From Ginglymostoma cirratum (lineage: Eukaryota), in NCBI GenBank assembly GCA_024137785.1, contig JAHRHZ010000038.1, positions 8,384,219-8,448,218 of the forward strand: a DNA stretch of 64,000 bases, written 5' to 3'. Below are positions 2,190 through 64,000 of the stretch, one piece after another (position 1 is the first letter of the stretch; each line of letters begins with the position of its first letter). The notes beneath the pieces are model-generated. The model ran no database searches. It saw nothing but the letters and a program-made list of their open reading frames with translations, and was not told the origin of the DNA. Both the position numbers and the translations under genes were made by a program.

Positions 2190-2660
2190 GATTGGTTCCG
2201 AGGAAGAGTCACCGGACTTGAAATGAAATCTTCTGCTTTCTTCCCATAGATGCTGCCAGACCTGCTGAGTTTCTCCTAAAGTTTATGTTTTTGTTTCAGA
2301 ACTTCAGCATCCGCAGCTCTTTGGTTTGTTATTATGTTACTCATAGTCCCCATTATCGCCTATCTGGCTTCTCTTCTTTCCTTGCTTACAATCAACAATC
2401 CCTTTGTCTGCCAATCTTTTTCTCTCTCCCAATCTCAGCTGCATCTCCATCTATCCACTCATCCCTTACCCCCACCAACCCTCCATCGTGAGCATAAATT
2501 CTACCTTTTCTTAGCTGTCATCAGTTCTGAAGAAGAGTCACTGGACTCTAAATATTAAATCCATTTCTGTCTCCACACATGCTGCCAGACCTGCTATGTT
2601 TTTCCCAACAATTTTGGTTGTTTCAGATCTTCAGCATCCACAGTTCTTCGTTTTATTTCA
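2190..2660 (+). mobile_element. Penelope-derived pLTR fragments in partial tandem, with two degenerate hammerhead cores
   Basis: Two direct copies of core plus gatgctgccagacctgct, cores at 2198 and 2527. Confidence 0.7.
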
Positions 2661-2949
2661 GAGAAAAAGGAGACCTCAATATCAAATAATGTTCCCTGAT
2701 CTCAATTTTTTTTGAAAGAAAGGCAGTGTCCTGACTCACTTTTATTCCCAGACTACCATATCAGCCAAACTTGTGGTTATTTTGTGCAAAGGCTTCCTTA
2801 GTCTTGGTCAGAAGCTGAAATCACTTTTGGTAGCTTGTTCTTCAATTTATAAGTGAACTCAGAAGGACAACATGGATATTTGGAGGGCACAGTATGAAAG
2901 AATACAATCTTCCCTGCTTCTTGCTGCAGACAATACAAAATTATATCAT

Positions 2950-4185
2950 AAACTGGAAAATGGCTAACAGAACACCCCTGTTTAAAAAGGGAGAGAGGCA
3001 GAAGACAGGAAAATGTAGGGCAGTTAGCCTGATCTCATTCGTTGGTAAGATTTTAGAGTCCAATATTAAGGATGAGACTGCGGAGCACTTGGAAGTGCTT
3101 GGTAAAATAGGGCTGAGTCAGCATGACTTCATCAAGGGGAGGTCGCACCTGACAAATATGTTAGAATTCTTCAAGGGGGAAACAAGCAAGTTAAACAGAT
3201 GAGAGCCAGTGGGCATGAGCATTTTGAATTTCCAGAAGGTCTTTGACAAGGTGCCACACAAGAGGCTGCTGCTGAATACAATAAGAGCCTATGGTGTTGG
3301 GGGAAGCTATTGGCATGGATAGAGGATTGGCTGACTGGCAGAAAACAAAGTAGGCATAAAGGGATCTTTTTCAGGGTGGCAACCAGTGACTAGCGGAGTG
3401 TTACAACCACAACTATTCACATTATACATTAATGATCTGAATGAAGGAACTGAGAGCATAGTTGCTACGTTTGCAGATGGCACAAAGATAGGTGGAGGAG
3501 CAGGCAGTGTTAAGGAAGAGGGGAGTTTGTAGAATGGCTTGGACAGGCTTGGAGAGTGGGCAAACAAGTGGTAGATGGAACACAATGTGGGAAAGTGTAA
3601 GGTATGTTTTCCATATGGGGCAAGGTTTTGGAAATGTGAAGCACCAAAGGATTTGGAGTCCTCGTTCAGGATTCTGTTAAGGTTAACGTCGAGGTTCACT
3701 TGGCAGTTAGGAAAGCAAATGCAATGTTAGCATTCATTTCAAGAGGGTTAGAATACAAGAGCAGAGATGTACTGCTGACACTGTATAAGGCCCTGGTCAG
3801 ACTGCATTTGGAATACTGTGAGCAGTTTTTGGGCCCTGTATCTAAGGAAGGCTGTGCTGCCCTTGGACATGGCCCAGAGGAGGTTTACAAGAATGATCCT
3901 GGGAATGAAAGGCTTGTCATGTGAGGAGCAGTTGAGATGAGGAGGAATTTTTTTCATCCAGAGGGTGGTTAATCTGTGGAATTCATTGTTGTGGACAACT
4001 GTGGAGGCTAAGTCATTGAGGGTATTTAAGACAGAGATGGACAGGGTCTTGGTCAGTAAGGAGATCAAAGCTCATGAGGAGAAGGCAGGAGAATGGGATT
4101 GAGAAACCTATCAGCCATGATCGAATGATGGAGCAGGCTCAATGGGCCAAGCGACCTAAATCTGCTCGTTAACCTTGTGGTGTAT
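2950..4185 (+). mobile_element. Decayed CR1 LINE (RT region to 3' tail)
   Basis: ORF remnants WKMANRTPLFKKG..RAVSL and KANAMLAFISRGLEYKSRDVLLTLYKALVRLHLEYC, with stops and frameshifts. Confidence 0.9.
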
Positions 4186-4875
4186 AGTCAGAGTCTTGTC
4201 TTGAATTCAAATATAACAAAGAAAGACAATGGCATTCTTTAATTTGCACCTGTTAAATAAACCTTCACATTACTTCAGACTGCCAAAAAATATTTTCAGT
4301 ACCTTTTCTCTAGTAATTATCTCTCTGCTTCATTGATGAAAAGGAATTTTCAGACTGGTCCATACCTTTATGGTTTAGGACATATTTGAAACTGCTGAAT
4401 GTACTGCTAGAATTGCTTTATGCCCCTGTATGTACAGTGTAGTCAATTAGCTGTCCGCAGCAACAATGCTATTGTACTTACACACAGAATTTCCTTACTA
4501 CATGAATGATGCACAACTTCCAGTGACCAGATTTGGTATGGACAATACATAAATGAAGCTGACTGGTACATCAGGCAGGCTCAGGACATTACCAGCCAGC
4601 ATGTGTTAACACACTGGCTGACTAATATCCATGTACAAACCCTTCTAGCAATGTACTGTATCTTAATTACATTTGAATTGCTCTTCTACCAAGGAGAATG
4701 AGGAAGTTTCCACATAAATTATATTTAGAATATGTGATTATTACCCTTCTGAATGTAGGTATCATCTGATCTCCGAGATTTCAGTGAGTTAAACACTTTA
4801 ACTGCTTAACTGCTTATAGTGTATATAAAATTCTGGAGATAATTATTTAGAAGGAGGGGGTTTTATAAAATTATG

Positions 4876-5083
4876 AACAAAATCAGAAATTGTTGGTAAA
4901 ACTCAGTAGGTCTGGCAGCATCTGGGGACTGAAAGCAGAGTTAACATTATGGGTGCAGTTCTGAACAAGTGTCACTGGATCTGAAATGATAACTCTGCTT
5001 TCTCTCACAGATGCTGCCAAACCTGTTGAGTTTTTCAAGCAATTCCTGATTTTGTTTCTGATTTCCAGCATCCACAGTTCTTT
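4876..5083. mobile_element. Foldback Penelope-derived mini-element with 16-bp target-site duplication
   Basis: Inverted arms; gttttataaaattatg at 4860-4875 and 5084-5099. Confidence 0.8.
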
Positions 5084-5728
5084 GTTTTATAAAATTATGC
5101 TTGGTCTTATTTTCTGTCACATTCGAGTTAATGCTGCAAATTTATGACAACACCGCATGTAGAACAAGCTTTAATCCATATTGCAATTAACCATTTGAAA
5201 TTTGAATATGATTACCAAGGCTGTTTTCTCCTTCACATTAAATATATTGTAAATCTGCAAAATTCGCTAACTGACTAGTAATAAATATATCATGGTAATC
5301 TGAAACAACAGGCAAGATGCACAATCAAACTCTTGGTAATAACTGTTGTATTTGCTGACAATCCTGAACCAATGGGATAGATTCGCATTTTCTAAAATTA
5401 GTTCTTGTGTGCTTTATCAGTTAATTCTACACATGCAAACAATATGTGGATAATTGAAACTTCAAATTGTGACATGTTGGCTAACGATTCAGACTCCATA
5501 ATTTGGCATGGCATGTGTGGATACTCACTTTGACCCAACAATGTTAACTTATGTGGTTTTGAGATTGGCAAAAGCAACAATGTACATTGGCCCTGATGGA
5601 ACACAATTGGCTTGGACTAAAGTTGCAAGATTTATTCTGCTCTTTCAATTCTTGCTATAATCAAAGCAGTAATAATGATGATATTAATAGCCTCTTGATG
5701 TGTTACTGCCAATAACACACATCCCCTC

Positions 5729-6057
5729 AGGGGAGGCAATGGCCTAGTCATATTATCACTGGACTGTAGAGCCAGATAATGTTCTGGGGACCTGGGTTTG
5801 AATCCTGCTTTGGCAGATGGTGAAGTTTGAATTCAATAAATAGCTGGAATTAAGAGTCTAATGTCAGGGGGAGAAACCTATCTGGTTCGCTAATGTCCTT
5901 TAGGGAAGGAAACTGCCATCCTTACCTGGTCTGGCCTACATGTGACTCTAGACCCACAGCAGTGTGGTTGACTCATAACTGCCGTCTGCGCAATTAGGGA
6001 TGGGCAATTAATGCTGCCTGGCCAGCAATGCCCTCATCCCATGAATAAATTAAAAAA
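5729..6057 (+). mobile_element. tRNA-derived SINE (related pieces at about 34815-35195, 44640-44722 and 51762-51912)
   Basis: Box A-like tggcctagt, box B-like gggtttgaatcc, shared core ccatccttacctggtctggcctacatgtgactc, and an A-rich tail. Confidence 0.75.
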
Positions 6058-6681
6058 TCATCTGGTGATTCTACCCTATCCTGTTTGGAATATTGTGTAT
6101 GTTAGTATAACTTCATGGAATTTTGCATGGCTCTTCACAATGCTTTGGTAGTTTTATTTAAAAAGAAAGGGTTCTCAGCCAAGTATCACATATCTTGAAA
6201 GCATTGATTCCAGCTGCTTTTGATTCTATGCATGTTAACCACTTTCAGTGTTTTGCCCAGTCCTCATGATTGAGCAGAAAAGTGAATACTGGTGGATCTT
6301 CCCCTTTTTTTTAAAACCAACCTTCATAGATGTTATGACACATATCTGGAGAAGGTCCAGGTCTCTTAGCCCAGAGGTAGGGGCACTACCATTGCTATGC
6401 AAGAGCTCTTCTGATAGACCTTCTATCAGAGCAGAGGTGATGTTTTGGTACTGCCTTCACCTGACTCCCATACATTGGGTTTCCAACAATCACTTCAGGG
6501 CAAGAGAGCAGTTGGAGTTCCATGTATCATTTAATTTTCAAAACAAGTAGCACTGGGAATGATTGAAACATGTCTGCGGTTGAATCCGGAATCTTCCAGT
6601 GTGTGCGCCTCATTCGTTAAACTTCCAGAAAGAGGATGCAGTTCTTCATTTAGTACATTCCCAGATGTGACCTGCATTTCA

Positions 6682-6985
6682 TCACTGCTGCCTCACAGTG
6701 CCAGGGACCCGGGTTTGATTCCACCCTCAGGTGACTGTCTGTGTTAAGTTTGCACATTCTCCCCGTGTCTGCGTGGGTTTCCTCTGGGTGCTCCGGTTTC
6801 CTCCCACAGTCCAAAAATGCGCAGGCCAGGTGGATTGGCCATGCCAGATTGTCCGCAGTGTTCAGGGATGTGTAGATTAGGTGAGTTATTAGGGGATGGG
6901 TCTGAGTGGGATGCTTTGAGGGTCGGTGTGGACTTGTTGGGCTGAAGGACCTGTTTTCACACTGTAGGGATTCTATGATTCGATG
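6682..6985 (+). mobile_element. HE1-like V-SINE (3' part also at about 35600-35800)
   Basis: V-domain ttctccccgtgtctgcgtgggtttcctctgggtgctccggtttcctcccac, box B gggtttgattcc, and a CR1-like tail. Confidence 0.85.
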
Positions 6986-6990
6986 AATAC

Positions 6991-7227
6991 TGAAATAAAC
7001 TCCTGAAAGGCCAGTATCCTGTCACCTAATCACCCTTTATTTGCACATGCATAGAATTTGACATTGGTCCAGCTAGCATAGAGCCAGCTCCGAGAGTGAG
7101 CAGAACCCCTGACACTTCCGTTTCTTTCTGTCAGCCTTGGCTCCCTGATTGGACCAGGTTAACAGCCCCAGTCAATGAACTTATGTTCTATGAAATCCAC
7201 CTGGCTGACCTTGTTCTACTCACTACA
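6991..7227 (-). mobile_element. Solo LTR (237 bp)
   Basis: TG...CA termini; aatac direct repeat at 6986-6990 and 7228-7232; CCAAT followed by AATAAA on the minus strand. Confidence 0.75.
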
Positions 7228-7789
7228 AATACAATTACAGTATCTGGATCTCAGTTCATCACTTGATAAGCTCATTGGCAAAGAAATTTGGCTCCTTTTT
7301 GGTTGTCTTTTCAGTACTATGATTGCCATTTTGCTTCCAACATGGCATATTTGTGGTGTTAGCAGTGCCAGATGCAATTTTGGCAAGGCAATAATATGAA
7401 CTCAGGGATTGTCTGCCAGAGGAATACAGAACAGGTAGCATGTAATCAGAATGTAATGCTATATTAGTGCACATCAGTACAGTTCATGTTGTCCCTTAAA
7501 CATGGACATGGCTGAGCACATGTTCAGTAGCAAGACAGATCCCCTCACCAGTGCCATTTAAAAGAATCAGGTTAGTTGCTGTTTAATTTCCACCGACCCT
7601 TGCATCAATTGTAGAAGCGTTTTGAGTTTTTTAGAACATAAGGACATAAGAAACAGGAGCAGGAATATGCCTTCTCTGAGCTCAACTTGTCCAGGAGATT
7701 CACCACCTGTTCCCTTGACAGCTTACCTATTAAAATGTTGATAATGCAATTTCCTGGTCCCCACATTAGTTGTTGCTGCGAAGGGTTCT

Positions 7790-8300
7790 CTCCAGACACT
7801 GTCCTCGTTCCCTTCAAATCTGCTGCCATCAGCCCGTCTCCAAAAAAAAACTGCTGACCTCACCACCCATTAAACTACTGTCCCATCTCCACCTTTTCTA
7901 TCCAAGGTCATCAAACATGTAGTCCGTTCCCAAATCCATATCTGTTTTTCTTGAAATGTTTGTTTGAATCCCTGCGGTTAAGTTTCTTCTCCTGCCATGT
8001 TACTCCAATACTTCTTCTCAATATCACAAGTGATATCCTGTGTGACTGGACAAAAGTAAACAAAGTCTTTTTAAGTAGTCTATAGTCTTGGATATGATTG
8101 GCCACATCAACTTTCTCTGGTGTCTTCCTCACTGTTGTCCAGTTGAATATGACTACATGCACCTGGTTATATTTTTATCCATCTCGTTGTAGCCAGGGAA
8201 TCACCTATTTTGGCTTCTTTTTCTACTCTCATACCATTACCTCTGGTATGAGTCTTGGGTCTACGTTTGGTCCTCTCCTATTTCTCATCAACCTGCTGAT
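7790..8300 (+). mobile_element. Highly decayed L2-like LINE RT fragment
   Basis: Remnants resembling FKSA-I-P-LKK, NYRPIS and GS-LGPLLF (ORF 8098: GSTFGPLLFLI). Confidence 0.55.
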
Positions 8301-9329
8301 CTTCAACACAGGGCAACTAAGTATAGATTGGACCTGAATCCTTCTGGTCTACATGCCTCAGTAAATGGATGCAGTGCAATTGCAGTATTTTGGGAGGGTG
8401 GAGTAGAGTTATTTACATTCTTAGCTTTCTTATTGAGGAGGTGGGATGGTTCCATATTATCAGAAGGGAAAGAATGATGAAGTCTAATTGTGAATTAATA
8501 GGGCTGCATGTGATGGTACAGGAGCATTATTAGAATCTGGTCATGATTTTCTACAAAATAAGTAATTTAGTCTCCCAAAACCAAGGATCAAATGTATTGG
8601 ACCAGCTCCATTTGCTACTGAAAAACTGGCTATTGAGAACAGCAGCCATGTGCAGACTGCTGGATACTCTGTAGCGGAGCTGTGTAACTGCTTGTAACTA
8701 GCAAATTCTGTATCTCGCCTTTTGTCTGGATTCAAATTCCACACACTCCGATGAAAATGAAAGCTCTAATTCATTGATGCTGACATTCTATCAAAGGGCT
8801 ACATTGTTTCACTTAACATAACAAAGATTATCTTTTGTTAATCCTATTTTGTGGAGTTTACAGAGGCATAAATTTTGCTACAGTAGCAGCCTCCTTCAGT
8901 TTTGCTTATTAGTTACAATAGTTCTTTTTTATAGAGATTATCCTGATTTTTATTATTCCTCTCAAAACAGAATCACATAATGGTTTCTCCAATTCAGGAA
9001 CTTTAGTCTGTGGCGAAGTCCAGGTATGAGCTTAGACAGATAGTCACTGGGCTATTTCAGTTGCTGAGGCCATAGATTTTGTTTCTCAGCAAGGGTGACT
9101 GGACAGCAACTACAGGGTAAAATTGTAATATTTTCACCCTGAAGTTTTCAGAGATGCTGAAGCATCAGTTTTGTCACAAGTTCAAAACAAAATAATGTGG
9201 CATGCTTTTGTATTTGTGAGATTTTTGATATTCCTTTTCCAATTGACTGCTAATATTTCGTTCACACACATGAAACATGAATTAAGGTTACTTTAAAACT
9301 GGAACTGTAGAACAGAATAGAATATCCCT

Positions 9330-9594
9330 TATTATCACATATATTGCATTGTAGAGGTACAGTGAAAAGCTTTCACAATATCTGCCTCTTATGGCGCCAT
9401 CTTAAGTACAAGTACCTAGGTACAATTCGTGGATACAAAAGAAGAATAAAAAGAAATAAAACATCGTTAAAGATTTGACATTATAGACAGATGACAAAAA
9501 CATTTCAAATAAACATTACATTGCAGCAGCTCAGCGCAGGACCTCCACACATGGTCTGATCGCCTGTGCCAGATCCCAGTCCAACAGCCATTCG
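9330..9594 (-). mobile_element. Retroelement 3'-tail repeat (related copies at about 19940-20230 on - and 46505-46575 on +)
   Basis: Shares tacagtgaaaag...gccatctta.gtacaag with the 19990 region. The reverse complement matches cttttcactg...gtgacaataaa at 46515. Confidence 0.55.
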
Positions 9595-9602
9595 CCGTTC
9601 CA

Positions 9603-12115
9603 GAGATAGTAGGAACTGCAGATGCTGGAGAATCTGAGATATACAAGGTGTAGACCTGGATGAACAGAGCAGGCCAAGCAGCATCATAGGAGCAGGAAGG
9701 CTGACGTTTCGGGCCTAGACCTGTCTTCAGAAATGGGGGAGGGGAAGGGGCTTCTGAAATAAATAGGGAGAGAGGGGGAGGTGGATAAAAGATGGATAGA
9801 GGAAAAGACAGGTGGAGAGGAGACAGACAGGTCAAAGAGGCAGGGATGGAGCCAGTAAAGGTGAGTGTAGGTGGTGAGGTAGGGAGGAGATAGGTCAGTC
9901 CAGGGAGGACGGACAGGTCAAGGGGGCGGGATGAGGTTAGTAGGTAGGAGATGGGGGTGGGGCTTGAGGTGGGAGGAGGGGATAGGTGGGAGGAAGGATA
10001 GGTTAGGGAGGCAGAGATGAGCTGGGCTAGTTTTGGGATGTGGTAGGGGAGGGGAGATTTTGAAGCTTGTGAAGTCCACATTGATACCATTGGGCTGCAG
10101 GGTTCCCAAGCAGGATATGAGTTGCTGTTCCTGAAACCTTCGGGTAGCATTGTTGTGGCACTGCAGGAGGCCCAGGATGGACATGTCGTCTGAGGAATGG
10201 GAGGGAGAGTCGAAATGGTTTGCGACTGGGAGGTGCAGTTGTTTAGTGCGAACCGAGCATAGGTGTTCTGCAAAGCAGTCCCCAAGCCTCCGCTTGGTTT
10301 CCCTTATATAGAGGAGGCCACAACGGGATGCAGTATACCACATTAGCAGATGTGCAAGTGAACATCTGCTTGATGTGGCAAGTCTTCTTGGGGCCTGGGA
10401 TGGGGGTGAGGGGGGAGGTGTAGGGGCAGGTGTAGTACTTCCTGCGGTTGCATGTTAAAGTGCCGGGTGTGGTGGGGCTGGAGGGGAGTGTGGAGCAGAC
10501 AAGGGAGTCACGGAGAGAGTGGTCTCTCCAGAAGGCAGATAAGGGTGGGGAGGGAAAAATGGCTTCGGTGGTGGGGTCAGATTGCAGATGGCGGAAGTGT
10601 CGGAGGATGGTGCGTTGGATCCGGAGGTTGGTGGGGTGGGACGTGAGGACGAGGGGGATTCTGTTTTGGTTGTTATTGCGGGGAGGGGGTGTGAGGAATG
10701 AGTTGCGGGAAATGCGGGAGACACGGTCGAGGGCGTTCTCAACCACTGAGGGGGGGAAGTTGCAGTCCTTGTAAAACGAGGACATCTGAGGTGTATGGGA
10801 GTGGAATGCCTCATCCTGGGAGCAGATGAGGCGGAGGCGAAGGAATTGGGAATAGGGGATGGCATTTTTGCAGGACGGTGGGTGGGAGGAGGTGTATTCT
10901 AGGTAGCTGTGGGAGTCGGTGGGCTTGAATTGGATTTTGGTTTCTAGATGGTTGCCGGAGATGGAGTCAGAGAGGTCCAGGAAGGAGAGAGAGGTATTAG
11001 AGATGGTCCAGGTGCACTTCAGGCTGGGGTGGAAGGTGTTGGTGAAGTGGATGAACTGTTCGAGCTCCTCGTGAGAGCATGAGGTGGCGCCAATACAGTC
11101 ATCAATGTAACGGAGGAAGAGGTGGGGTTTAGGGCCAGTGTAGGTATGGAAGAGGGATTGTTCCACGTAACCTACAAAGAGGCAGGCATAACTTGGGCCC
11201 GTGCGGGTACCCATGGCCACCCCCTTTGTAGGAAGTGGGAGGAATTGAAAGAGAAGTTGTTGAGGGTGAGGACGAGTTTGGCTAAGCAGACGAGGGTGTC
11301 AGTGGAGGGGGACTGGTCGGGCCTGCAGGACAGGAAGGAGCGGAGGGCCTTTAGGTCATCTGTATGGGGAATGCAGGTGTATAGGGACTGGATGTCCATG
11401 GTGAAGATTTGGTGTTGGGGACCGGGGAATTGGAAGTTCAGGAGGAGGTAGAGGGCGTGGGTGGTATCACGGACGTAGGTAGGGAGTTCCTGGACTAAGG
11501 GGGAGAAGATGGAGTCGAGATAGGTAGAGATAAGTTCGGTGGGGCAGGAGCAGGCGGAGACAATGGGTCAACCAGGGCAGTCAGGTTTGTGGATTTTGGG
11601 AAGTAGATAGAAGCGGGCGGTGCGGGGTTGGGGAACAATGAGATTGGAGGCTGTGAGTGGGAGGTCACCTGAGGTGATGAAGTTGTGGATGGTTCGGGAG
11701 ATGATGGTTTGGTGGTCGGGGGTGGTGTCATGATCAAGGGGTGGTAGGAGGAGGTATCAGAGAGTTGGCGCCTGGCCTCGGCGATGTCAAGGTCAGTGCG
11801 CCATACTACAACTGCGCCTCCCTTGTTCGCTGGTTTTATAGTGAGGTTGGGATTGGAACGGAGGGCGCGGAAGGCTGCACGTTCTGCGGGGGAGAGGTTG
11901 AAGTGGGTGATAGGGGTGGAGGGGTTGAGACGATCGATATCTCGACGGCAGTTGGAGATGAAGAGGTCAAGGGAGGGTAGGAGGCCTTGGGGTGGTATCC
12001 AGGAGGAGGGGGTGTGTTGGAGGCGGGAGAAGGGGTCAGTAGAGGGAGGGTTAGGCTCACGGTTGAAGAAGTAAGCGTAGAGGTGGAGGCGGCGGAAAAA
12101 CTGCTCGATGTCCAC
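9603..12115 (-). mobile_element. 5'-truncated Penelope-like retroelement (RT plus GIY-YIG endonuclease, probably Neptune-type), frameshifted
   Basis: Minus-strand ORF pieces IKPANKGGAVVVW, MDIQSLYTCIP, MGTRTGPSYA, LRYIDD, Cys-rich linker CNRRKYYTC and GIY-YIG CGLLYIRETKRRL..EH..PVANHF. A hammerhead motif lies at 9701-9734; ccgttcca direct repeat at 9595-9602 and 12116-12123. Confidence 0.92.
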
Positions 12116-12544
12116 CCGTTCCACCCTGCTTTATGGCGATTCCTCATCCACTGACACTCAGTGATTTATTTAGTAACTCATCACTTGGTTCTATAGAAGT
12201 TTTTGCGCTGCAGATTGCTGAGAATTGTTACAACTTAATTCTGAGTTGACTCAGCCTCAGATGGTCCTGGGTAAGGAGACATTTGTTTTGGGGAAGGATG
12301 AGAATCAGGAAGTCAGAATAAGACTGATTTCTGAATAACTGTTGGCCACAGAGGATTGAGAACAAGTAGCTTGCTGTCAATCTTAGGTGAGCATGATTAT
12401 TCTATAGGACAGTTGGTCATGAGACTTGGAAATAAAAAAAGGGATTGAACAACTTTTATGTTTTTGTGGTAATATGCCAGAAAATATGATTGGGGTTCCC
12501 TCGAGACCATCAATGATGATATTTGAATATTTTGTTTGTTGCAG

Positions 12545-48265
<35,721 letters not shown>

Positions 48266-51200: not shown

Positions 51201-53077
51201 CTTTGTTGGTTGTAGAGTGCTTTGTGATGTCCTGAGGCCACGGGAATGCGTGTATTTGCGCATTCATTTTTGACCTAGAGGAGACCAGAAGAGTGTGCAA
51301 TTAATCTCTCACCTTTCAAACCATTATAATATTGGTACCTTGCTTACAGGCTACACAACATATTCAATCACATTTATAACCTAATGGGAAATGAATTAAT
51401 GTGTTCAATTATACCCCTGAGCTGCACATACAGGCCCTTAATTCATGTTGAGAAAACCGTAGGTACACTTTGCTGACTTCCTTTGGCAAACAGTAGGGAG
51501 AAGTATTTTCTCACATAGTTGAGTTAATTGCACTTTGTACCTCAGTCTAAAGAAGCTAGATCAAAATGAATTTAGTGTGTACAGTTCCAGCTCAGTGACT
51601 CTAAGCTTTTATAATATTGATATGTTGTTAATTAATTAGCACTAACATTCATTGATAAATTTCATTCTAGCTTAACAAAATATTTTTCTTTATTTGTCAG
51701 GTAACTAAGCAAAATGTGTGGGATGATTAAGGTTAATACAATAATGTGCTTGAGGGATAGAAAGTGCCATCCTTATGTTGTCTGGCCTACACGTGACTCC
51801 AGACCCACAGCAATGTGTTTGTCTCTGAACTGCCCTCTGGGCAATGAGGGATGGACAATAAATGCTGCCTAGCCAACGACGCCCTCATCCTGTCAATGAA
51901 TAAAGAAAAATAAATTTAGTTTGACTAAGGGAATATTCAGTAACTCGTGGCTCAGTGAAATTTGACAGCTATGTCAGTTGGTGGTTTGTTTAATTTCTGC
52001 AGCAGTGAAAGCAACTGCCAACCAAGTAAGTATTTTCCATCAGTGCCAGTGCTGCTTCATTCAACAGATACCGGAGACATTGGAGCTTAGATTTTCCAAT
52101 CTGTGTTATTTTAAAGCCAGCAGTAAACATTCTAAAATTAAATAAACGTTTCTTATTGGGTTACCACTTGTATTATAATAACACTGAGTAGAGTATTCAG
52201 TTTGTGTCTCCTGTTCCTCCACAATCTTGAAACCCTTTACAGCATGTTTGCACATACATCCAGAACGACATCTCTTTCTGGATGATGTTTACGCTGTTGC
52301 AGACCTTGAACTCTACAAATGTAAGAAAACATCACAGCAACACCACATGACCTTTCTCATGACATACAGCAGAGAAGATTAAAGGGTCACACGAGTATCA
52401 TACCCTTTCCATATTTTACAGCATACTGACATGTCTTGATTTGGTGAGAGGTTTTGGGTTGGGGCGGGGAAGGTTAGATAACAATGCTCACTCTTCAGTG
52501 AAGCTCACTCGAGCACACACCTTTGTAGTAGAAGCAATGATCTGGGTTGAACCATGTTTCTGGTTCACTTTAATGTTCTCATTATTCCTCAGTTAAGTTT
52601 GTTTTCTGTGCATGCACCTCCTCTATCTCTTTCTTACAATTACGAAGCCTTTCAACCTTTTACCTATTTATAGCTGTAAATACGTAGATTTGGAATCTAT
52701 CAAGTGTTCCATCGCACCTAGCAATCATCCTTTCTTTCACCTTTTCTGAATAGCATTCACTCAGTAAAGGTAATTGGAAAGACATTTGTAGTCTGTGCTT
52801 CCTTCCTACCTCTGCCTTTTATCTATATAAAATATTCATGCTGTATTTAATGTATGATTTAAGTTGAGCACCGCCTTGCTTTCCTGATTAGATGTATGTG
52901 CCAGAAAACAAAGGAAGTTTTTACTTTCCAATGTGCCAATAAGCTCAAAATGAGAACTATAATTGTGTACACAGTATTTTCTTGATAGTATATATTGTTT
53001 CAAGTGACTGTAATCTGTAGTCTTATATGGACAGTTTACTTGATTCTTTCAGTGTTTAGGAGAAAAGATAAATATAT

Positions 53078-53083
53078 ATTAAA
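53078..53083 (+). promoter_or_regulatory. Candidate polyadenylation signal (ATTAAA) of a long slc6a9 3' UTR
   Basis: ATTAAA at the end of a repeat-poor AT-rich block with UTR-like motifs, followed by T/GT-rich sequence. An alternative AATAAA lies at 52141. Confidence 0.35.
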
Positions 53084-54666
53084 GAAGCTACTTGTGTAAA
53101 TCTCTTTCATTCTGGGGTCAGTTAAGTACGTTGGAATCTGTGAAATGTTCACATCTTTGTATGAGATCTGATTTTGTCACTGTTATTTGATTCATGGCTG
53201 TATTTGGCTTATTTTCATATATTAATATTTGGCACTTAAAAATACTTAACATTGAGGACAAATCATAAATTGAGTGAATGTTTGACAAAATGTAAGATTT
53301 TTACAAGTCATACTTTATTGTAACAGCATCTCCATTCAGGGTAACAAGTTTTCTCATTGCCTCTATCTCCTGGATGCAATTGTTGCTGAAGCATTGAAGA
53401 TAAGAAACTTTCTAATAAGATGAATGGTCTTGATGGGAATGTCATGGCTACTTCTCATCTTCTCCCTCATTTGAGTCAGTGATAACCAGGTTTCAGTCTA
53501 ATTTGCATGGTGATTTGTTAAAAGAGGTATTTCCCTCTGAGCTCCATGTACTTACTTTAGGCTGGTCTCTGAAATAATTGATGCGGAGTGTGGATTATTA
53601 TTTATTTGACTGACATTAAAAAAATGAAATTAAAACTTTTCCAGCAGCTTGAACATTTACCAATGAAATCCAGCCAGCTCCCAAAAGAATTAATAGACAT
53701 TTCTATATCGTCCATGTTTTCCTTGTCAATAATTCTCCATACAGGAGAATTGGTAAAGTATCTTTACTAGTCCCCAGGAAGTGTCACTTGACACTGAGAA
53801 TGTTTTGAAGAGTGCAAGCAAATGGCCCGCATAAAGTCACCCTTTAAGTTTCCCTTTTGTGCAGTTAAGCATAAGCAGACTGAGCAGTACCTCCACCTAG
53901 CATAAAACATGAAATTAGGAACATATTATTTCACGAAACGAAGCAACAAATCCAATTTACTAACCATTCCTAATTGCTACAGCCTCAATAAGACTCTCTG
54001 ACACATATGAAATTACTGAGGAGGGACACTTCAGTCACAGTATATGTACAACTTTCTGAAAGACTCATACACAAAATGAGTGTTTCAGGTGCTGGAGGTG
54101 GCAGGGAGAAATACGTGTCTTTAATTAGCATCTACTTGGCAAACTTAATGATATTATGGATCAATGGAATAGCAGTGGAACTGTTATCATTATCCCCAAG
54201 TTGTGTTTTGGTGAACTGGAGGCAGATTAATTTATACTGTGCTTGAAATGTTTGTGTTTTGAGACTAACAGTATCAAAATTTGGATTTTCCAATTTGCTA
54301 CTCTTCACCTGAACTGGCAGAAAAAGAATGACCAAAGCAAAGTGACTGTTTAATTTTGCCACCTTGCTTTCGTGGTATGGCCCCATATTCACTACCATTG
54401 AAGCTGGAGGACTGGTGTATCAGAAAGAGGATTTACTGCAGCACAGCATTTCAGCATAGTGTTCATTACATCAAAAAAATCTGCTGTAAACTTTATTCTT
54501 TGACATTTGAAACCAGTAAAGCTTTAAAGGGGAATATGCTGATTCCAGAGTATCGATTTTAAAATCTGTCAGAATTATGAATTACTTGATGTTTGCTCTT
54601 GTGTTTTTTCCAACATACTAATCAAGTAGCCAGTGCTTTAATTCCTAAGCAGTACGACATTTATTA

Positions 54667-56345
54667 TAGAAACATAGAAAATCGGAGCAGGAGTAGGCCA
54701 TTCAGCCCTTCAAGCCTGCTGTGACATTCAGTAGGATTGTGGCTGATTATCCAATTCAGTACCTTGTTCCCACTTTCTCTCCATACCCTTTAATTCCTTT
54801 ACCACTAAGAACTGTATGTAATTCCTTATTGAAAACATTCTATGTTTTGACTTCAACCACTTTCTGTAATAGATAATTCTACAAGCTCATCCCTTTCTGG
54901 GTGAAGAAATTTTTTCCTCAATTCAGTCCTAAATGGCTCACCCTATATCCTTTAACTGTGACCCTTGGTTCTGGATCCTTTATCCTTCTAGTTAAGTCAG
55001 AATTTCATAGGTTTCTATTAAGTTCATTAACTAACTAACACACACACACACACACACACATTTATTCCCCCTGCCCTCCTGCCAACATTCTTCTAAACTC
55101 CAGTGAATATAGTCCTAACTGATCCAGTCTCTCTTTATATCTAAGTCGTGCCATCTCAGGAATCAGTGAGCTGAACCTCTGTTATAATCCCTCCATAGCC
55201 AGAACAATATTCCACAGATAAGAAAACTAGAACAGCACAAATTACTCCAGGTGAGGTCTCACCAAAGCCCAGTACATTTGCAGCAAGACATCTCTGTTCT
55301 TGTGTTCGAATCCTCTCACTATGAAGGCCAATGTACCTTTAATTTTTATCAAGGCCTGCTGCACCTACATGCTTACTTTTTGCAACTGGTGTACGAGGAC
55401 ACCTAGGTCTTGTTGTACCTCCCCCTTTCCCAATCTATCGCCATTGAGTTAATAATTTTCCTTCCTGTTTCTGCCACCAAAGTGGATAACCTCACATTTG
55501 ACTACATTATTACTTTATTTTCCATTCATTTGCCCACTTACTTAACTTGTCCAAATCACACTGAAGCATCTCTGCATCCTTCTCACAGTTCACCCTCACC
55601 CAGCACTGTCGCATCTGACTACCTACTAGTCACTGCCTGCCAAAGGAATAAAGACCCATTTATTCCTATTCTTTATTGCCCATCTGCCAACCAGTTCTCT
55701 GTCCAGATCAGTACACTGCCCCAATCCCAAGCACTTTAACTTTACATGCTAATCTCTTATGTGGGATCTTAGTGAAAGTCTTATGAAAGCCCAAGTAAAC
55801 CATATCCACTGAATCCCCCTTATCAACTTTACTAGTTACATCCTCAAAAAATTCTGGTAGATTTGTCTGTAGATCAGTGCTAACGCTGTCTGATCCTGTC
55901 ACTGTTCTTCAAGAGCTCTGTTATTAAATCTTTTACAATGGAGACTAGCATTTTTCAACTAATGATGTCAGGCTAATTGGTCTATTATTGTGTTTTCGCA
56001 ACCTCATTTTAAATGATGGAGTTACATTAGCTACCTTCTAAACCATACAATCTATTTCAGAGTCTATAGAATCATGAAAGATGAAGTCTGAGGCATCCGC
56101 TGTTTCCAGGGCCACTTCCTTACGTACTATGGGGTGTAGATTGTCGAACCCTGAGAATTTATCAGCTTTCAATTTCCCTAAGACTATTTCCCTATTAGTA
56201 TTGATTTTCTTCAGTTCCTCCCTCTCTCTAGACCTTGTGTTTCCCAACATTCTGAGATTTTACTTGTGTCCTCCTTTTGTGAGGACAGAACCAAAATATT
56301 CATTTAATTGGTCTGCCATCTCTTTGGTCCCCATTATAACTTCCC
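54667..56345 (-). mobile_element. Decayed CR1 LINE, with (CA)n at about 55038-55060
   Basis: Minus-strand ORF remnants LKADKFSGFDNLHP and EFFEDVTSKVDKGDSVDMVYLGFHK; CR1 3' tail near 54670. Confidence 0.88.
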
Positions 56346-58152
56346 TGACTACATTTGTCTATAATCTTTTTCACTTCCATTTTTTACTATCAGTTTGTAT
56401 GTTCCCTGCAAGCATGTAATCTTAATCTTGAAAGAAAAGGGTTTCTATAAACTTAAGTGTATAACTTAAAATAACAAAATTGCAAATTGACTTATGGTTC
56501 CTGAGTGCTGATGGTATTTAGCCAACCTGCCTATCATTTGGCCTGAAATTGGAAGCCTTAGAGAAGTAATATGGATGAGCTGGATGTGAGATTTATTTTT
56601 TAAAATGATCACATCATTTCAGTAGAAGTGTTCTTCTGAGGTGTTACAGGAAACACTTTATTAGGAGAGAAGAGAAGGAATATACTGTAAGTTTGACTGC
56701 AATCGATCCTGACACTGTGACTGGTGAAACTGTGAACTCATCATTCAAAAGTAGGTTAATGATTTCTCCATTTTTTTTTCTCAAAACAGAGACATGTTGC
56801 ATTTGCAAACTCTAAAACAGAATTTCTTCTGCTAGATGAGATCCCACAATTAGGGTGCACTTGTGGTAATAACAACATTAACAAATAATTTAAGATAATC
56901 GGTTGAGCTCATGAAACGGCTGATTTATGCTGTTTAGAATTGAATGCATTCATACTATTTGACCCAGTCTCTACAAACAAGAAGAACATGTTCAAGCCTT
57001 GCACCTTTTCTTGAATTAGTGAGGTGCTTAGAGCCTTTATTTCATTCACCGCTGCTTTCTCTAGGGCAATGCTGCAGACAAGAGTCAACTTGCTAACCAG
57101 TTAGAATCCTTTTCTCCACTAGTGTAAATTGCTGTGAACATTTGAAATTTGGCATTCTTGATTATTTACTGTGAGTGCAAGATCTAAAGCTTCAGCAACA
57201 TGTCTTTCTTCAACAAAGTATATGGTTCCATTACACAGTGCACATGGGAAATCTCACCTTCACATGGCAAAAAAAAGTTCCTAGTTAAGGCAATGTTTGT
57301 GTAAAGTTTGGTCAAGGCAAATCTTTACCTATTGTAGGTTTTAGTTAGGTGGCCTGTGGAAGGAGTGTGAAACAGACTTGCTGGATCTTCAGCATAAGAC
57401 ATCATAATGTTTCTTAGTTTTCACAACTCTTCGCCTGGAGTTGTACTGAACATTAACTGCCTTGGTAACCAAGTCCTTGTGGGTAGGGAATGCATCTGGT
57501 CAAGGCTGATAACTGGAGTTGTGAGATTGAAGATTGTGCCAAGTCTTATAGTAGACTAATGACCTATCCATCCCACAATATTAATGACTGTTAAATTAAA
57601 TGGACCTATTAGGGCCAATCCAGATTGTAAATATTGCTCAAATTGGATCAGTCTTAACTCTGAACTCCATCTTACAGGAGAAGAAAAGATGTCAAATGTT
57701 GGGTGTACACTGTGTTGGCTTTATGAATAGGTTTAACTCTGGATCACATTTATTCTTAATATGTAATTGGGGTTTCAGTTCCCTAAGCTGTTAGACTCTC
57801 TTGACCACTTACTTAAACTGCCACATCACATCATGTCAACAAATATATATACTTTTTTTTTTAACCAATGTTAGGAGCTAGCAAGAACAAACATAACTAA
57901 AAGATCAAAACTACTGATTGCAAGTGCACAAACAGAAAACAGCTAACAGTAAAGAAGCGGACCCAATGCAAGAACTCACTACCGTCTGGAAAAAGCTTGC
58001 TTGTCATTTCTCAGCAACCTGAGCACATATTGGACATAAATGCCAAGAATTTTCTCCTAGCTTCTCCTGACTGCTGTAATTTATAAGGAGGTTTGACATG
58101 AAATAAACAAGAGCCTCACTGCTCCCACTTTATTCAAGCATCTCCTGGAATC

Positions 58153-58190
58153 AGTTCTGAGGAAGGGTCACCGGACCCGAAACGTTAACT
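58153..58190 (+). ncRNA. Minimal type-I hammerhead ribozyme motif in a mini-element of about 100 bp (58155-58252)
   Basis: AGTT-CTGAGGA-A-GGGTC(ACCG)GACCC-GAAA-CG-TT-AACT; tcctggaatcag direct repeat at 58143-58154 and 58253-58264. Confidence 0.75.
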
Positions 58191-58470
58191 CTGTTTTCTC
58201 CTCCACAGATGCTGCCAGACCTGCTGAGCTTTTCCAGCAACTTTGTTTTTGTTCCTGGAATCAGCTATTCATCAAAGAGTGCCTGCTGACAGTCGAGGAG
58301 AAAGGTTTGTTGTGTGGCCAGTTGACCCACCCCAGTGTGCACGATGTAACCAGACTCAAGGTAAATTGTATGGAAGTTACTATACAGAGACATGCCATTT
58401 AACCCAACTGGTCTCTGCAAGTGTTTATGATCCACGAGAGCCTCCTCTGAACTCACCGCCTAAAACAAAA

Positions 58471-58686
58471 GGTAAAGTCACCATAGCCTTAACAGACCAT
58501 AGGGGTGCTCTCTCATTGCAGAAAGTTGACTAATAGTGGTTTAACCTGTGGGTCACTATGCCTCAGGCGACAGGAAAGGTTGAGAAGGAGAATCCTTCAT
58601 AGTGACCTCAGCCGGGTGCAGGAACTGAACCCACCGTGTCAGCATCACTCTTCATTGCAATTCAGCCAACTGAGATTGCTGACCCC
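58471..58686 (-). mobile_element. tRNA-derived SINE
   Basis: The minus strand has CTCAGTTGG (box A-like), GGGTTCAGTTCC (box B-like) and a tail ending ctatggtgactttacc. Confidence 0.6.
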
Positions 58687-59713
58687 ACTTCACCTTATCG
58701 TACAAACACACCCTTATACTTTTTCCTCCCTTAGATTTTTGGAATCTCTTCAATGTTACACACATCAGTCTATCTGGTAGTACGTTCCATAATCTTATCA
58801 AACTTTGGGTGAAGATGTTTCTCCCAAATTCTGTATTGGAATACTGACTACCTTATATCTACATTCTCTAGTTTCATACTCAGCAACATACACATATGTG
58901 GCAACATTTTTGCAAAGTTTACTCTCTGCAATCTCTTCAAAATTTTAAGGGTGGTTAAATGATCACCCAGATATTTATGTACTGGTCCTATTGTATTCAA
59001 ATTCACTCTAATTTTGTTTGAAGTACAAGAATTATTTTTTAAAATGTGTTAATGAATACTGACACATGGAGAAAATTGTTTTTATGTTGTGACAAGATTA
59101 CAGGCAGAATGCATCCATTTTTGATGCAGACTCCTAATTCCTGCCCTCCCTTAAACCAGACACAGAACTAAATGGAGGAAACTGCAAATCTAGTACAATC
59201 TCAAAATAAAGATCTATTGTGCAGGTAATGATGAAAACACTCAGTAAACTAGGCGGCATTTGTAAGAATGGAAAATATCAATGTTTCAGACTTAGCGTGT
59301 CATGTATGTATTCTGGTTAACAAGAAGACATTTAACAAGAGTTGAAGAAACAAGATAGAGTTAAGAAACATTCATAAGAAAAAGAAATCAGGTGACAAGG
59401 AGGAGATGGTTGTCTGTCAGGCCAAACAATAGTTCAGTATGAGTCATGGAGAGGCAGATCAGAATGAAAAGGCATGTCTTGGACTGGTGTTAATAATGGA
59501 CTGGTCAGATTCTAGGGTGACACATGGCTTGATAGTCTATAAGTTTTATTTTTACAGTTTGGTCACTGCGGTTACCAGTCCTGAACATATTCAAACAATG
59601 CTGCTCATGTGCTTTCAACAAAAGATTGTAAGTTTATTATATAAAAAGAAGAAAACAGCTAAATATGTTGATGACAATTTTGAAAGATCGAATCATAAGT
59701 AGCAAAAAGGTTT

Positions 59714-60212
59714 GGAGCTGGATGATCACAGCAGGCCAAGCAGCATCATAGGAGCAAGAAAGCTTGACGTTTCGGGCATAGACCCTTCATCAGAAGCCCT
59801 GAAGAAGTTACCCTCCTCCCTCCGGACAAACCTCAGGGGATCTCTCTCCCACTGCAACTCTCTCATAATCTCTTCGGCCTTGAAACTGCTCGACCACGTC
59901 CTGAAGCAAACCAGGTACTACAGCCACATCACCTTTCTTAGCACCTGCCTACGGAACCAGATCATCCCCAATGGACTACAATCCACATTCAAGCCTTCCC
60001 AATTTGGCCCCAACCGTGACAATATCTCCATTCAGAACATTGAGACCCTTCAGAAGCGCTTCTCCCTGCGACTCCAAAGCATTTCTGATGAAGGGTCTAG
60101 GCCCGAAACGTCAAGCTTTCCTGCTCCTATGATGCTGCTTGGCTTGCTGTGTTCATCCAGCCCTACACCTTGTTATCTCGGATTGTCCAGCATCTGCAGT
60201 ACCTATTATCTC
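59714..60212. mobile_element. Internally deleted Penelope-like element: inverted pLTR arms, two hammerhead motifs and an N-terminal ORF fragment
   Basis: tagcaaaaaggttt direct repeat at 59700-59713 and 60213-60226. CTGATGAAGGGTCTAGGCCCGAAACGTC at 60085 (+), mirrored at 59765-59793 (-). Peptide SHITFLSTCLRNQIIPNGL. Confidence 0.85.
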
Positions 60213-63200
60213 TAGCAAAAAGGTTTAACCTTTTTACCAGCAATAGCCTTCTGCAGACTCTCACCCCCAACAAATTATCACTCTAACCTTCAACTTACTT
60301 GACTGACAAGTACACAAGTTCCTATCAGTGATACACTGCACATTCACTAGATATGATTCTGTGTCAAATTGTTGAAAAGGTGCAGTTAACTTTGAAGAGA
60401 GTTAAACAGACTAACTTACTGATACTTCTCTGACTTTGACTAAGGTTACTAAGATTCCTTTCCAACTCTGCTGCCTGGAGACTTGCCCAAACTAAAAGCT
60501 GATGTAGATTTTTTTTCTGAACTCAATTTGATTGAGGCCCGTAGCCATCTTCCTCTGTTCAATGTAAACGTTCCAATTAATAAATATCAAGCAATCATCT
60601 CACATGTAGACTGCTTGTCACTTACGTTACTTGCTTTCTTGGAAAGGCTGTTTTGGGTTTCCTGTTCACGAATGATTCTCTAACACTTAAAAGAACCACC
60701 TTCACTGAACTAAAATCAAAAATGCATTTAAGTTGTAGAGTTCAAGTTTCCAGAAAAATGATCATATACCACAGCTTACATCACAGGATGTAGAAATGCA
60801 TGAACTGTTGAAGCAGGTTAGGTAAATTACGGGGAAGAATATAGAAATCTGGTAACCACCTCCTGCTATTGGCTCAATGAAGTTAATAGCACATTCCCTG
60901 TTCATCTGACGCTGAAACCCCATCACTGCACTCTGTGAGTCCAGCTTTAAGAAGACAGTAAACAAAATGAGAAAAACAATGAACTGCAGGGGACCTAACC
61001 TTAATAAGGGATGGCAGGGTAACATTTGCAAATTGCAGCAATTGGTTATCATGTGACAAAACCCTGAGGAATACATCCAAGCAGAGTTGACAGATCTAGC
61101 CTAATCAGTTTTCAGCAGTCAACAGGAATTCTTAAATATGGCTCAACTCATGAAGAATTATGAGAGTAATTTTATGGTTACAGAATGATGGAACTTTATT
61201 TTCATAGAATATATCATTTAAGGAATAAATCCCCATTCTATGTACCAAATTAAAAATGCAAAGATATAAATCATGGAGCTCGATCCATATAATTGCAAAT
61301 CTTTTTTTCCTTACGCTCATATCTTTTTATTACAGCACATTTCTACTGGATATTTATTTCTGAGATTTTTCTTACATTTCCATATAACTTAAATGAGAAT
61401 TGCTGAACTTGAATTTGCTGTTGAACTGTACCAATTGCAATGGCTGTTTGGATCCGACTTATGTGTTTAAGTGCTACTGGTGTAATACCTCGTTTGAAAG
61501 AAGCCAGATTAGACAACCAGTCACGGCTGAAAGGGTGGTTGATGGGTGAGCAAGGCTTTTTATAATAGTGAAAATTTGGACCAATGGATAGTGGCATATC
61601 GGCCACAATCTGCACTACAATATTTCATTATAATGATCATTTTTAATTTGACTATTACAAATTAATTTGCTGACATGCTGTCTTCAAAGTTAACTCTGCA
61701 CGTTTTCAACAATTTGAAAATTTAGAAAAAGAATTAATCCTGCTACGCTTTCAAGACTCCGGCTAACATTGACTAATCATTTCAGTAGTAATGCTCAGCA
61801 AGTTTACTTTGCCATCGAAACTCAGTCAGACAAACAGGATGATAAAAGCATGACTTTGGCCATTTTCCATCAGAAGAGTCATTGATCTAAAAGTAATTTT
61901 TTTCACAGACAGCATTTTATCTACTCTGGGTTTCTACTATGAACTCTCTCATAATTTGTCTATCACTACTTCCCAAGTAGTGCTGGCCAAACGATTCCGA
62001 GGAAGTCATCATGAGGACCTTATCTTTACTCACACCCTTGCTAATTAGTCAAATGAGGGTCAGTCTACCTCATAAACTGACAGTTTTCTTTTAAATTCAT
62101 TCATGAGATGTAAGTGGTATTGGTTAGGCCAGCATTACTTGCCCATGACAGGTTGCCCATTTCAACAGAGACTTATTTCCAGGAAGGAAAAAGCTCTCCT
62201 TTGTAGCTTTGTAGATATTTACTTAATGGAGGCCTGTCAGTCTGTTTCTCTCGGAGTAATGGATTTCTTAATGATTCATTTTTTGAGTCTGTTGGTAAGA
62301 ACCTCTTGCTATTATGATGGCTTACACATTTTTAGTTCTTGCAACTTGAGAATTTCTATCTGTACTGTCCTGGCCTAAAAGCTCTACATACTAGAAATCA
62401 TGTTTGTTGTGGAGACTGCTTCCCCTGAACTGACTTAAATCGCTTGCCAAGAGAAACTGTTCTCTTCTGAAAGTTCTGGAGGGATATGGGCCAGCAGCAG
62501 GCAAGTGGGACTAGTTTAGTTTGGGTTTATGTTCAGCACGAACTGGTTGGACTGAAGGGTCTGTTTTCATGTTGTATGACTCTGTGACTCTATATACTGA
62601 ACTCATTTAGTTCAAATTGTCTCTTAATTCTTCCTACCAAAAATCCATTGTTTATTTGCATTAACTGTATCTGCAGTGTACCTACCCATTTTATTAGTCT
62701 TCCTCAAACCTCCAGATGATAGTTACTATCCTCCTCACTTATTGACTACATTTCTAAGTTTGCATCATCTCCAAACTTTTAAATTATGTACAAGTCCAAA
62801 GTCCAGGTCAGTGATATGTTGAAGACTAATGCTCCTAATGCTGATCCACTGTTAACATTGCTCCAGTCAGTAAAATGACCACTCATCACTGTTCTTTGCT
62901 TTCTGTTCCTAATCACCCTTAAAGAATGACAGAATGGTTACAGCATTGAAGGCGATCATTCAGCCTGTTGTTTGGTGCCAGCTTTTTGCAAGAGCAACTG
63001 CGTTATTCCCATTGCCTGGCCTTTTCCTCATAGCAACACAATGTTTTTTTTTCTTTCAGCCAAATCCCTTTTTAAACCTATATTGAATCCTCCTCCACCA
63101 TGCACCGTCAGGCAGTGCAATCGAGATTGTAACTGTTTTTTCTCCAATTTGTTTCTGAGGGTGATACTCATTGGGAGAGCCAGGGCAGGCACAATGGGCC

Positions 63201-63851
63201 ACACGGCATCTTCTTGTGCCCTAAAAATTCTGCAATTCTGATTCAGGGACATAGACATTAATTGGATTAGTCCACAGAATACAATAGGGGTTTGCAATAG
63301 TGTTCTACAGGATAAGTGGCAAGCAGACTCTCTCTGCTGTTACTGCCTGACCTTAGGCAATGGGAAAGTTCATAACCTGATAATCAGCCTGTTTTGCTCC
63401 ATTACAAATGCACCTTCCGTGGCCAGCAGGTCCTGCGTTGGACTCAAACCAGGAATGTCTGACACAGGAGAGGAATCAGGGCCAACAAACATCCTTCAGA
63501 CCCTAACTACCGAGTACATAAAGAAAAGTTTTATCAGTCACCTTAAATCTGGCTCTCGATCCATCTACCAACAGGCCAGGGCCTTCATGACTTTGAACAC
63601 CTTTATCAATCTTCTCCAATCTGTGCATGTAGTTGAGGCTGTTCATTCCTTGAAGCATTCGCCTGATTTTTTTTTCCCCTGCGCCTTGCTCATGCCTTCC
63701 AGAAGTATGATGCCAAAAACTGGACTAAATATGTCAACTGAGAGTGAATCATCATTTTTTACTTTACTGTCTCTTTAACCTCATGGGCTTCAAACTGTCT
63801 CTGTATGAATTTTTCTGTATAAAATGAAACATTGATTCAAGCAACATCATT

Positions 63852-63947
63852 AGTTCTGAAGAAGAGTCACCAGACTGGAAATGTTAACTCTGCTTTCTTA
63901 CTCTAGATGCTGCCTTCTGAGTTTTGCCAGCAATTTCAGTTTTTGCT
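63852..63947 (+). mobile_element. Degenerate hammerhead-bearing mini-element
   Basis: agttctgaagaagagtcaccagactggaaatgttaactctg...gatgctgcc. Confidence 0.7.
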
Positions 63948-64000
63948 CCATTAACTTACTGACTGGTCTTTAATTGATGTTCAGTACCATGTTGCCACCT

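Follow-up and report, generated by a model that had tools for sequence, protein, structure and literature searches.

Hammerhead motifs of Penelope-like elements at a shark glycine transporter locus and the 5' boundary of their short copies

Minimal hammerhead ribozymes are already known from the repeats of Penelope-like elements (PLEs) in many animals. Those of the terminal repeats (pLTRs) are of type I, with a short helix I, an extra base between positions 9 and 10.1, a G10.1-C11.1 pair and a palindrome at 15.2/16.2; they form many families per genome, mostly as single truncated copies, and motifs paired on opposite strands at a distance of 100-700 bp also occur (Cervera and De la Pena, 2014; PMC4209133). 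Cleavage as dimers was reported for them in the same study, and a review's account of Lunse et al. likewise supports it (PMC6765202). The role of PLE ribozymes is still called unclear in a later survey (Craig et al., 2021; PMC8557442), and in one in vitro system insertion proceeds without the need for cleavage (Frangieh et al., 2024; PMC11167929). Here, we analyze such motifs in 64,000 nucleotides of Ginglymostoma cirratum DNA (assembly GCA_024137785.1, contig JAHRHZ010000038.1, positions 8,384,219 to 8,448,218; hereafter the window), which holds the gene for glycine transporter 1 (GlyT1/SLC6A9). The motifs almost certainly represent the hammerhead and tail that end the elements of at least two Penelope-like lineages without relation to each other; most are decayed, and most copies begin at the front edge of the ribozyme. 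From the sequences, we consider it probable (about 0.6) that these short copies are run-off reverse transcripts of an RNA that starts at the first base of the ribozyme. The literature searched, which was mostly without subscription papers and supplements and did not include Repbase or Dfam, yielded no report of hammerheads in shark PLEs or of such a 5' boundary; in the available part of one report, sharks appear only as the motif's namesake (PMC6155905).

All of the features listed by Cervera and De la Pena recur in the window. Profiles derived from the window's own copies gave 26 arms in 16 insertions (Table 1), covering ~7.2 kb including a 400-N gap, and the same profiles found nothing in the reversed window. 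A recognisable core is kept in 20 of the 26 arms; the core listing has 21 rows, the extra one being a 23-nt duplicate beside the N gap (42364-42386). All fifteen motif coordinates of the first-pass annotation of this DNA bear a hammerhead-like motif, and its estimate of more than a dozen copies on both strands is right for core-bearing arms, but only six copies satisfy a complete minimal hammerhead. These six (18450+, 17251-, 58157+, 18601-, 60085+ and 59793-) passed a strict type I descriptor comprising the core, a helix II of at least 3 bp, a palindromic 15.2/16.2 and UH, and five of them have a helix I of at least 3 bp. By chance, 100 dinucleotide shuffles yielded a mean of 0.06 strict matches and none with such a helix I. 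The diagnostic PLE features (core, base after A9, G10.1-C11.1 and palindromic 15.2/16.2) are found in six copies, with the family C copies deviating through a G.U pair at 10.1/11.1. Unlike the Schistosoma motifs of the earlier study, with a helix II of 7-8 bp, those of the window have 3-5 bp; moreover, the main text of that study names no sharks and reports no common 5' boundary. Rfam covariance models gave nine matches in the window at E values up to 1, none to a hammerhead family, and the microRNA-like ones among them were rejected as inverted pairs and microsatellite. Two motifs searched against viral contigs found no match, and the single match in prokaryote genomes, in one bacterial assembly, was taken as chance.

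The first-pass annotation had sorted the motifs into three covarying variants. Its helix I sequences for families A (AGTT/AACT) and C (AACAC/GTGTT) and its loopless palindromes, ACGT and AGCT, are confirmed, but A and B are not independent variants because homology extends along their full length of ~135 nt, at 69% in the tail, and helix III is common to both. Compensatory change is nonetheless real: the copy at 27651, previously placed in B, belongs with 25386 to a separate fourth subfamily, B2, with terminus AATGTT and a helix I (AGTC/GACT) that is a true double change relative to A. The copies at 42791 and 9730 do belong to B as proposed, but read CTGAAGA, with a broken first pair in helix II, in place of the CTGATGA ascribed to them. 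Family C is unrelated to the others outside the motif. Helix I thus reaches 4-5 bp and shows compensatory substitutions in A, B2, C and families outside the window, and is weak in native B, where the 5' flank ATTT (9730, 42791 and 60085) allows just two or three weak pairs.

Family B links the motifs to a coding element. By tblastn, an intact 889-aa protein (P0006) matched over aa 200-886 in four frames upstream of the 9730(-) motif; the open reading frame (ORF) ends at 10068 on the same strand, ~340 nt from the motif. The best named matches of the element protein are in carpet sharks, the zebra shark Stegostoma (80% identity) and Chiloscyllium (71%), and its relatives carry a reverse transcriptase (RT) domain (PF00078) and some of them a GIY-YIG domain (PF01541); a Pfam scan of the window's broken B-frame pieces returned no match. 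At many outside loci, the hammerhead lies 75-170 nt behind a matching ORF in a similar layout. The head-to-head pair at 59695..60213 encloses ~285 nt of an element ORF start, 89% identical to the N-terminus of another such protein (P0121, beginning MPNLKKLPSS). Because coding frames adjoin the 9730 and the 59793/60085 motifs, B is the end module of an autonomous-type element. The first-pass annotation was therefore correct in attributing minimal type I hammerheads to PLEs, as the RT and GIY-YIG frame beside B attests, and mistaken in calling the system non-autonomous as far as B is concerned: one motif ends a ~2.5-kb RT and GIY-YIG element, and another adjoins the N-terminus of such a frame. 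When 124 such proteins were searched against the window, no coding frame was found beside A or C.

The Cys linker CX2-5CxxC, intact in P0006 and reading CNRRKYYTC with its middle Cys altered in the window copy, is of a type that marks Neptune or Nematis according to Craig et al. (PMC8557442), and a 2026 preprint found only Neptune and Poseidon in vertebrates (Li et al., 2026; 10.64898/2026.07.22.740005). The B element is thus probably of Neptune type, an assignment made from a linker class common to Nematis. It shares with endonuclease-bearing (EN+) Neptune-type PLEs, as described by Craig et al., the order of RT, Cys linker and C-terminal GIY-YIG, an inverted partner, two 3' ends ~40 nt apart and assembly gaps at such structures. 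Its 3' ends lie at 9601/9602 and 9643, 41 nt apart and with A-rich flanks, in all four public runs from which contigs were aligned, matching the optional 30-40-bp tail known for EN+ elements (PMC8557442); the anole element has two internal reverse-transcription start sites (PMC11167929). Unlike the 5' ends of the surveyed elements, which spread, those in the window pile up at the ribozyme edge.

Measured from C3 of the hammerhead core, 15 of the 26 arms start within -9..+4, and none starts within 5 nt of the cleavage site. The remainder comprise four arms that reach at least 190 nt upstream, four that start at +9 to +43 (three inside helix or loop II and, by eye, one B2 arm near the edge) and three that are tail-only. 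Against a uniform null the clustering has P below 1e-6, a crude figure. Outside the window, contigs of run X15 have a loose end at the same place, supported by 363 contigs (clip at 9721, with the consensus continuing to 9734), and those of run X1 one at 9733 supported by 32. In A and B, the boundary also coincides with an initiator-like sequence. YYANWYY is the initiator consensus. It occurs with +1 at -4 in the copies that retain native flank, in A (2527, 16357 and 58157) and in B (9730), against a background of 1.3% per site. Fly Penelope has an internal TATA-less promoter within its repeat (PMC2377424).

On this basis, a sequence of steps may be proposed. The element protein would nick target DNA and, with uncleaved RNA as its template, begin reverse transcription within the tail, as in the anole element. 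A reverse transcript begun in the 5' repeat would then end after 90-135 nt by running off the start of the RNA, where the initiator-like site lies at -4, and priming from both target strands followed by joining of the two cDNA ends would generate head-to-head pairs. The ribozyme would be under selection in active elements and not in the copies of the window, and its cleavage would require either a strand-swapped dimer or the assistance of a protein. The inserts contain the uncut motif, which agrees with the uncleaved template RNA of the anole system. The anole Poseidon element PAc is similar in this respect and in its internal start downstream of the ribozyme. In PAc, however, the ORF begins in the ribozyme and the tail is coding, whereas the tail of the shark element does not encode the ORF start (MP.LKKL); the shark element also differs in having a Cys linker.

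Alternatively, the same elements could produce the same boundary if the RNA were long and reverse transcriptase stopped in its 3' repeat, at the base of a hammerhead that is folded, dimerised or bound by protein. The coincidence of the A boundary with the 5' strand of helix I, the halting of three partner arms within helix or loop II and the protein-assisted nature of the anole ribozyme (PMC11167929) all fit such a stop, which we nevertheless regard as unlikely: B has the same boundary though its native helix I is weak, a polymerase would be expected to halt on entering a structure, not on leaving it, and an upstream hairpin covering the core was no better than in shuffled sequences (B 18/200, A 55/200). 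This masking hairpin, good in single folds, was dropped as a candidate since it did not exceed shuffles in four window copies; in 15 outside loci it was likewise not consistently above them. An RNA start is favoured because of the initiator at -4, the B boundary despite its weak helix I and the internal promoter of fly Penelope.

Several other candidate features of the boundary were discarded. Of 47 upstream octamers from outside loci, 11 match the initiator at -3, but letters of helix I and the core confound this match. The ACGT palindrome resembles the downstream promoter element of fly Penelope, agreeing by eye in 5 of 8 letters for A, and this resemblance was not counted. A 3' splice site would fit the A boundary (CAG/TT), but B lacks the AG, and no shared upstream exon was seen. 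Finally, a loose end at 9702 in run X16, at the predicted cut site, proved to be a one-base insertion variant (median 15 letters) and not cleavage.

The reading nearest to that of the first-pass annotation holds that the ~135-nt unit, at least in A, is a non-autonomous element resembling short interspersed elements (SINEs) or retrozymes, with short master copies that the Penelope protein replicates. A and C have no linked coding frame in the window, the unit is nearly uniform, and one head-to-tail pair exists with a spacing of 329 nt (2195-2658), close to the ~330-nt unit of non-LTR retrozymes, which are also of type I and pLTR-related. Retrozymes derive from these repeats, with one cartilaginous fish among their hosts (Li et al., 2026; 10.64898/2026.07.22.740005). 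In addition, joints from 9721 back 121 nt to 9601, in 6 and 20 contigs of two runs, indicate that head-to-tail B units of ~135 nt exist. Still, we hold this origin to be quite improbable. The short B copies are ~90% identical to the end of a coding element; nine of the 16 insertions are inverted pairs, as among ordinary truncated insertions (PMC8557442); and the sole tandem in the window has two dead cores, with lesions at U4 and U16.1 in the copy at 2198 and at G12 in that at 2527. In retrozymes, at least two units follow each other in tandem and every unit has a complete hammerhead, whereas the window holds no tandem of intact motifs, and most of its units are inverted pairs or single micro-inserts. 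The ~135-nt B units at the joints are themselves candidates for dimer-competent copies.

The nine head-to-head pairs, drawn from all families and with tails outward, carry target duplications of 7-16 bp around five, 6 bp around a sixth and none that could be found for three; among the single inserts, two are flanked by duplications, one of 7 bp and one of 12 bp. Since a single duplication encloses both arms, each bounded pair is one event. An inverted 5'-truncated partner is a known feature of such elements (PMC8557442), and opposite-strand motif pairs had been noted earlier (PMC4209133). The pairs fold as long hairpins with one motif per strand, and thus cannot supply tandem dimers. The dimer cleavage that the first-pass annotation mentioned for PLE hammerheads would need tandem dimers, whereas here most copies are broken, the pairs are head-to-head, and the only head-to-tail pair has two broken cores.

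Several pairs have peculiarities of their own. At 59793-59801 (+), the ORF start reads CTGAAGAAG (LKK), the same nine bases that open the hammerhead, and this shared stretch may have steered the junction; with the antisense of the ORF start as its flank, the 59793 motif forms a helix I of 7 bp, which surpasses that of the native B flank. A whale-shark model named "prostatic acid phosphatase-like" (P0124) ends in a retroelement N-terminus, 88% identical to 59793-60062, as either a gene-model chimera or an exon capture. The 400-N gap within 42364-42809 lies inside an inverted pair and is flanked by an identical 23 nt on either side; 42368 and 42791 are likely one copy, at a single junction that broke the assembly. 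The C arms, ~88% alike overall, are identical across the motif (17217-17251 and 18450-18484), including the G.U first pair of helix II, possibly through conversion between arms. The insert at 18507-18601 places one Penelope family (A) within another (C). Outside the window, loci L006, L044, L115 and L073 also have head-to-head motif pairs; in L073, helix I starts as in A (AGT/ACT), and the ORF is on the opposite strand.

Whether the motif itself is conserved was assessed at two levels. A pattern that fixed only the core and helix II, leaving helix I and H17 free, retrieved 120 metagenome loci. These test the motif class and not the window's families, because the shark families are absent among them (no match for A or C, two weak core-only matches for B). 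The 117 matches with enough flank fell into 43 families; a first clustering into 25 was replaced because it chained families together, and covariation is seen in both. Helix I pairs 2.1 to 2.4 are formed in 34, 36, 36 and 24 of the 43 families (shuffled means 28.9, 17.6, 14.7 and 12.6), and pairs 2.2-1.2 and 2.3-1.3 are Watson-Crick in 36 each, a count reached by none of 5000 shuffles, although the families are related, so that shuffle counts overstate significance. Pairing at positions 5-6 is at chance. In register, 106 of 129 positions pair, versus 19-57 when the strands are slid, and the helix I covariation anticipated by the first-pass annotation thus holds across these outside families. 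At H17, 42 of the 43 families have C, U or A. These patterns indicate that the motif class is under structural selection in active elements. Within the window, by comparison, 12 A arms show changes at 14 of 130 core sites versus 122 of 850 tail sites (p 0.34), and G12, which lies within a CpG, is lost in five of the 12. The window copies decay about neutrally and are not clearly selected.

A number of observations weigh against the run-off interpretation. The boundary is listed in two of the four outside runs and is absent from the six rows listed for X3 and X16, and contig depth continues upstream of it, so that many copies are longer. The two large metagenome families have 55 matches, of which only 7 stop at 31 nt or less from C3, with two more cut by contig ends; the boundary is therefore not a general trait. 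Being short, the initiator motif recurs at three to seven other sites in the reference sequences of A and B; the relatedness of these two families means that their matches are not two independent cases; and C has no initiator match at its boundary. Position -4 is the base of helix I in A, so that a structural stop fits as well, and the native upstream sequence of A, for which 2331-2520 was taken, is known from one copy. The window contains no full-length element with a direct 5' repeat. Nearest-neighbour energies, which do not score ribozyme core contacts, give no preference to the swapped A dimer (-17.3 kcal/mol) over two monomers (-9.6 each) or another duplex (-27.0). Lastly, outside CpG the A core is changed at 9 of 118 sites versus 122 of 850 in the tail (p 0.045), a weak excess of conservation that may reflect selection, a mixture of subfamilies or the manner in which the copies were identified.

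Table 1. Hammerhead-bearing insertions and host-gene exons in the window
Feature	Positions	Strand	Details
A tail-only fragment	1198..1247	-	tail match
A head-to-tail partial tandem	2195..2658	+	period 329 nt; both cores broken
A head-to-head pair, decayed	4876..5083	both	16-bp target duplication
B, 5'-truncated autonomous-type element	9602..12157	-	ORF (RT, Cys linker, GIY-YIG) 12118-10068, frameshifted; then 3' untranslated region, hammerhead 9730-9703, tail to 9602
GlyT1/SLC6A9 coding exons	12560..48262 (ends approximate)	+	Pfam SNF; 11 tblastn segments
A head-to-head pair, decayed	15598..15762	both	11-bp target duplication, 1 mismatch
A head-to-head pair, decayed	16222..16448	both	11-bp target duplication, 1 mismatch
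C palindrome	17161..18634	both	arms ~88% alike, microsatellite centre; intact 17251- and 18450+ (helix II first pair G.U)
A micro-insert	18507..18601	-	in C-arm tail; 7-bp target duplication; core intact, helix I broken
B2 head-to-head pair, decayed	25252..25433	both	7-bp target duplication
B2 micro-insert	27645..27738	+	helix I AGTC/GACT; palindrome lost
A head-to-head pair, G12 lost	28340..28563	both	15-bp target duplication, 1 mismatch
B head-to-head pair	42244..42905	both	400-N gap inside; 42791+ with broken helix II
A head-to-head pair	43124..43340	both	arms both start at hammerhead edge; both cores broken; no clear duplication
A micro-insert	58150..58258	+	best-preserved motif, 58157-58186; 12-bp target duplication overlaps helix I
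B head-to-head pair	59695..60213	both	intact motifs 59793- and 60085+; 6-bp target duplication
A micro-insert	63851..63950	+	core intact; palindrome lost through CpG decay

The host gene matches named glycine transporter 1 with 89-93% identity, which bears out the first-pass description of a neurotransmitter-transporter locus. Contigs aligned on 9560-10160 in the four public runs number 65,415, 173,067, 8,676 and 9,300, and with B this abundant (8,676 to 173,067 contigs per run), the locus is not special. Co-option of some motifs to cut or regulate the GlyT1 transcript seems very improbable. Among the six intact motifs, only 18450 lies in sense within the coding span, in an intron, and this copy, together with the slightly better preservation of non-CpG core sites than of the tail, is what could speak for a host function. 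The 18450 motif, however, lacks a partner on its own strand and would pair with its mirror arm, which lies 1.2 kb upstream; the remaining copies in sense orientation within introns are broken, three of the intact ones are found 10-12 kb beyond the stop codon, and the family is common throughout the genome. The motifs are thus unlikely to cleave the GlyT1 transcript, and the ribozyme probably does nothing at this locus.

Other repeats in the window are distinct. Broken frames at 2834-4071 (+) and 55407-56419 (-) resemble what we take to be the reverse transcriptase of CR1-type LINEs (long interspersed elements); Pfam searches with two pieces of these frames gave no match. A dispersed repeat (167 nt, 82%) at 5891-6057, 35036-35089 and 51742-51908 is unrelated to the hammerhead families, and tandem arrays with 33-nt and 58-nt units (13733-14080 and 21587-21760) have no hammerhead cores.

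For the family, the boundary is the part that could teach something; the catalogue entry is otherwise ordinary. It raises the question of whether the front edge of the ribozyme marks a transcription start or a polymerase stop. A tentative and rather doubtful extension of the run-off origin is that the hammerhead DNA of shark Neptune elements doubles as a core promoter, with transcription starting at the first base of helix I. Run-off after 90-135 nt may then yield a hammerhead-headed micro-element that is transcribed and copied again as a SINE-like unit, and the loopless palindrome would act less in cutting than in bringing two template RNAs together for two-sided priming. If short copies do arise by run-off, thousands of uncut genomic copies starting at the ribozyme's front would be a direct readout of the template RNA.

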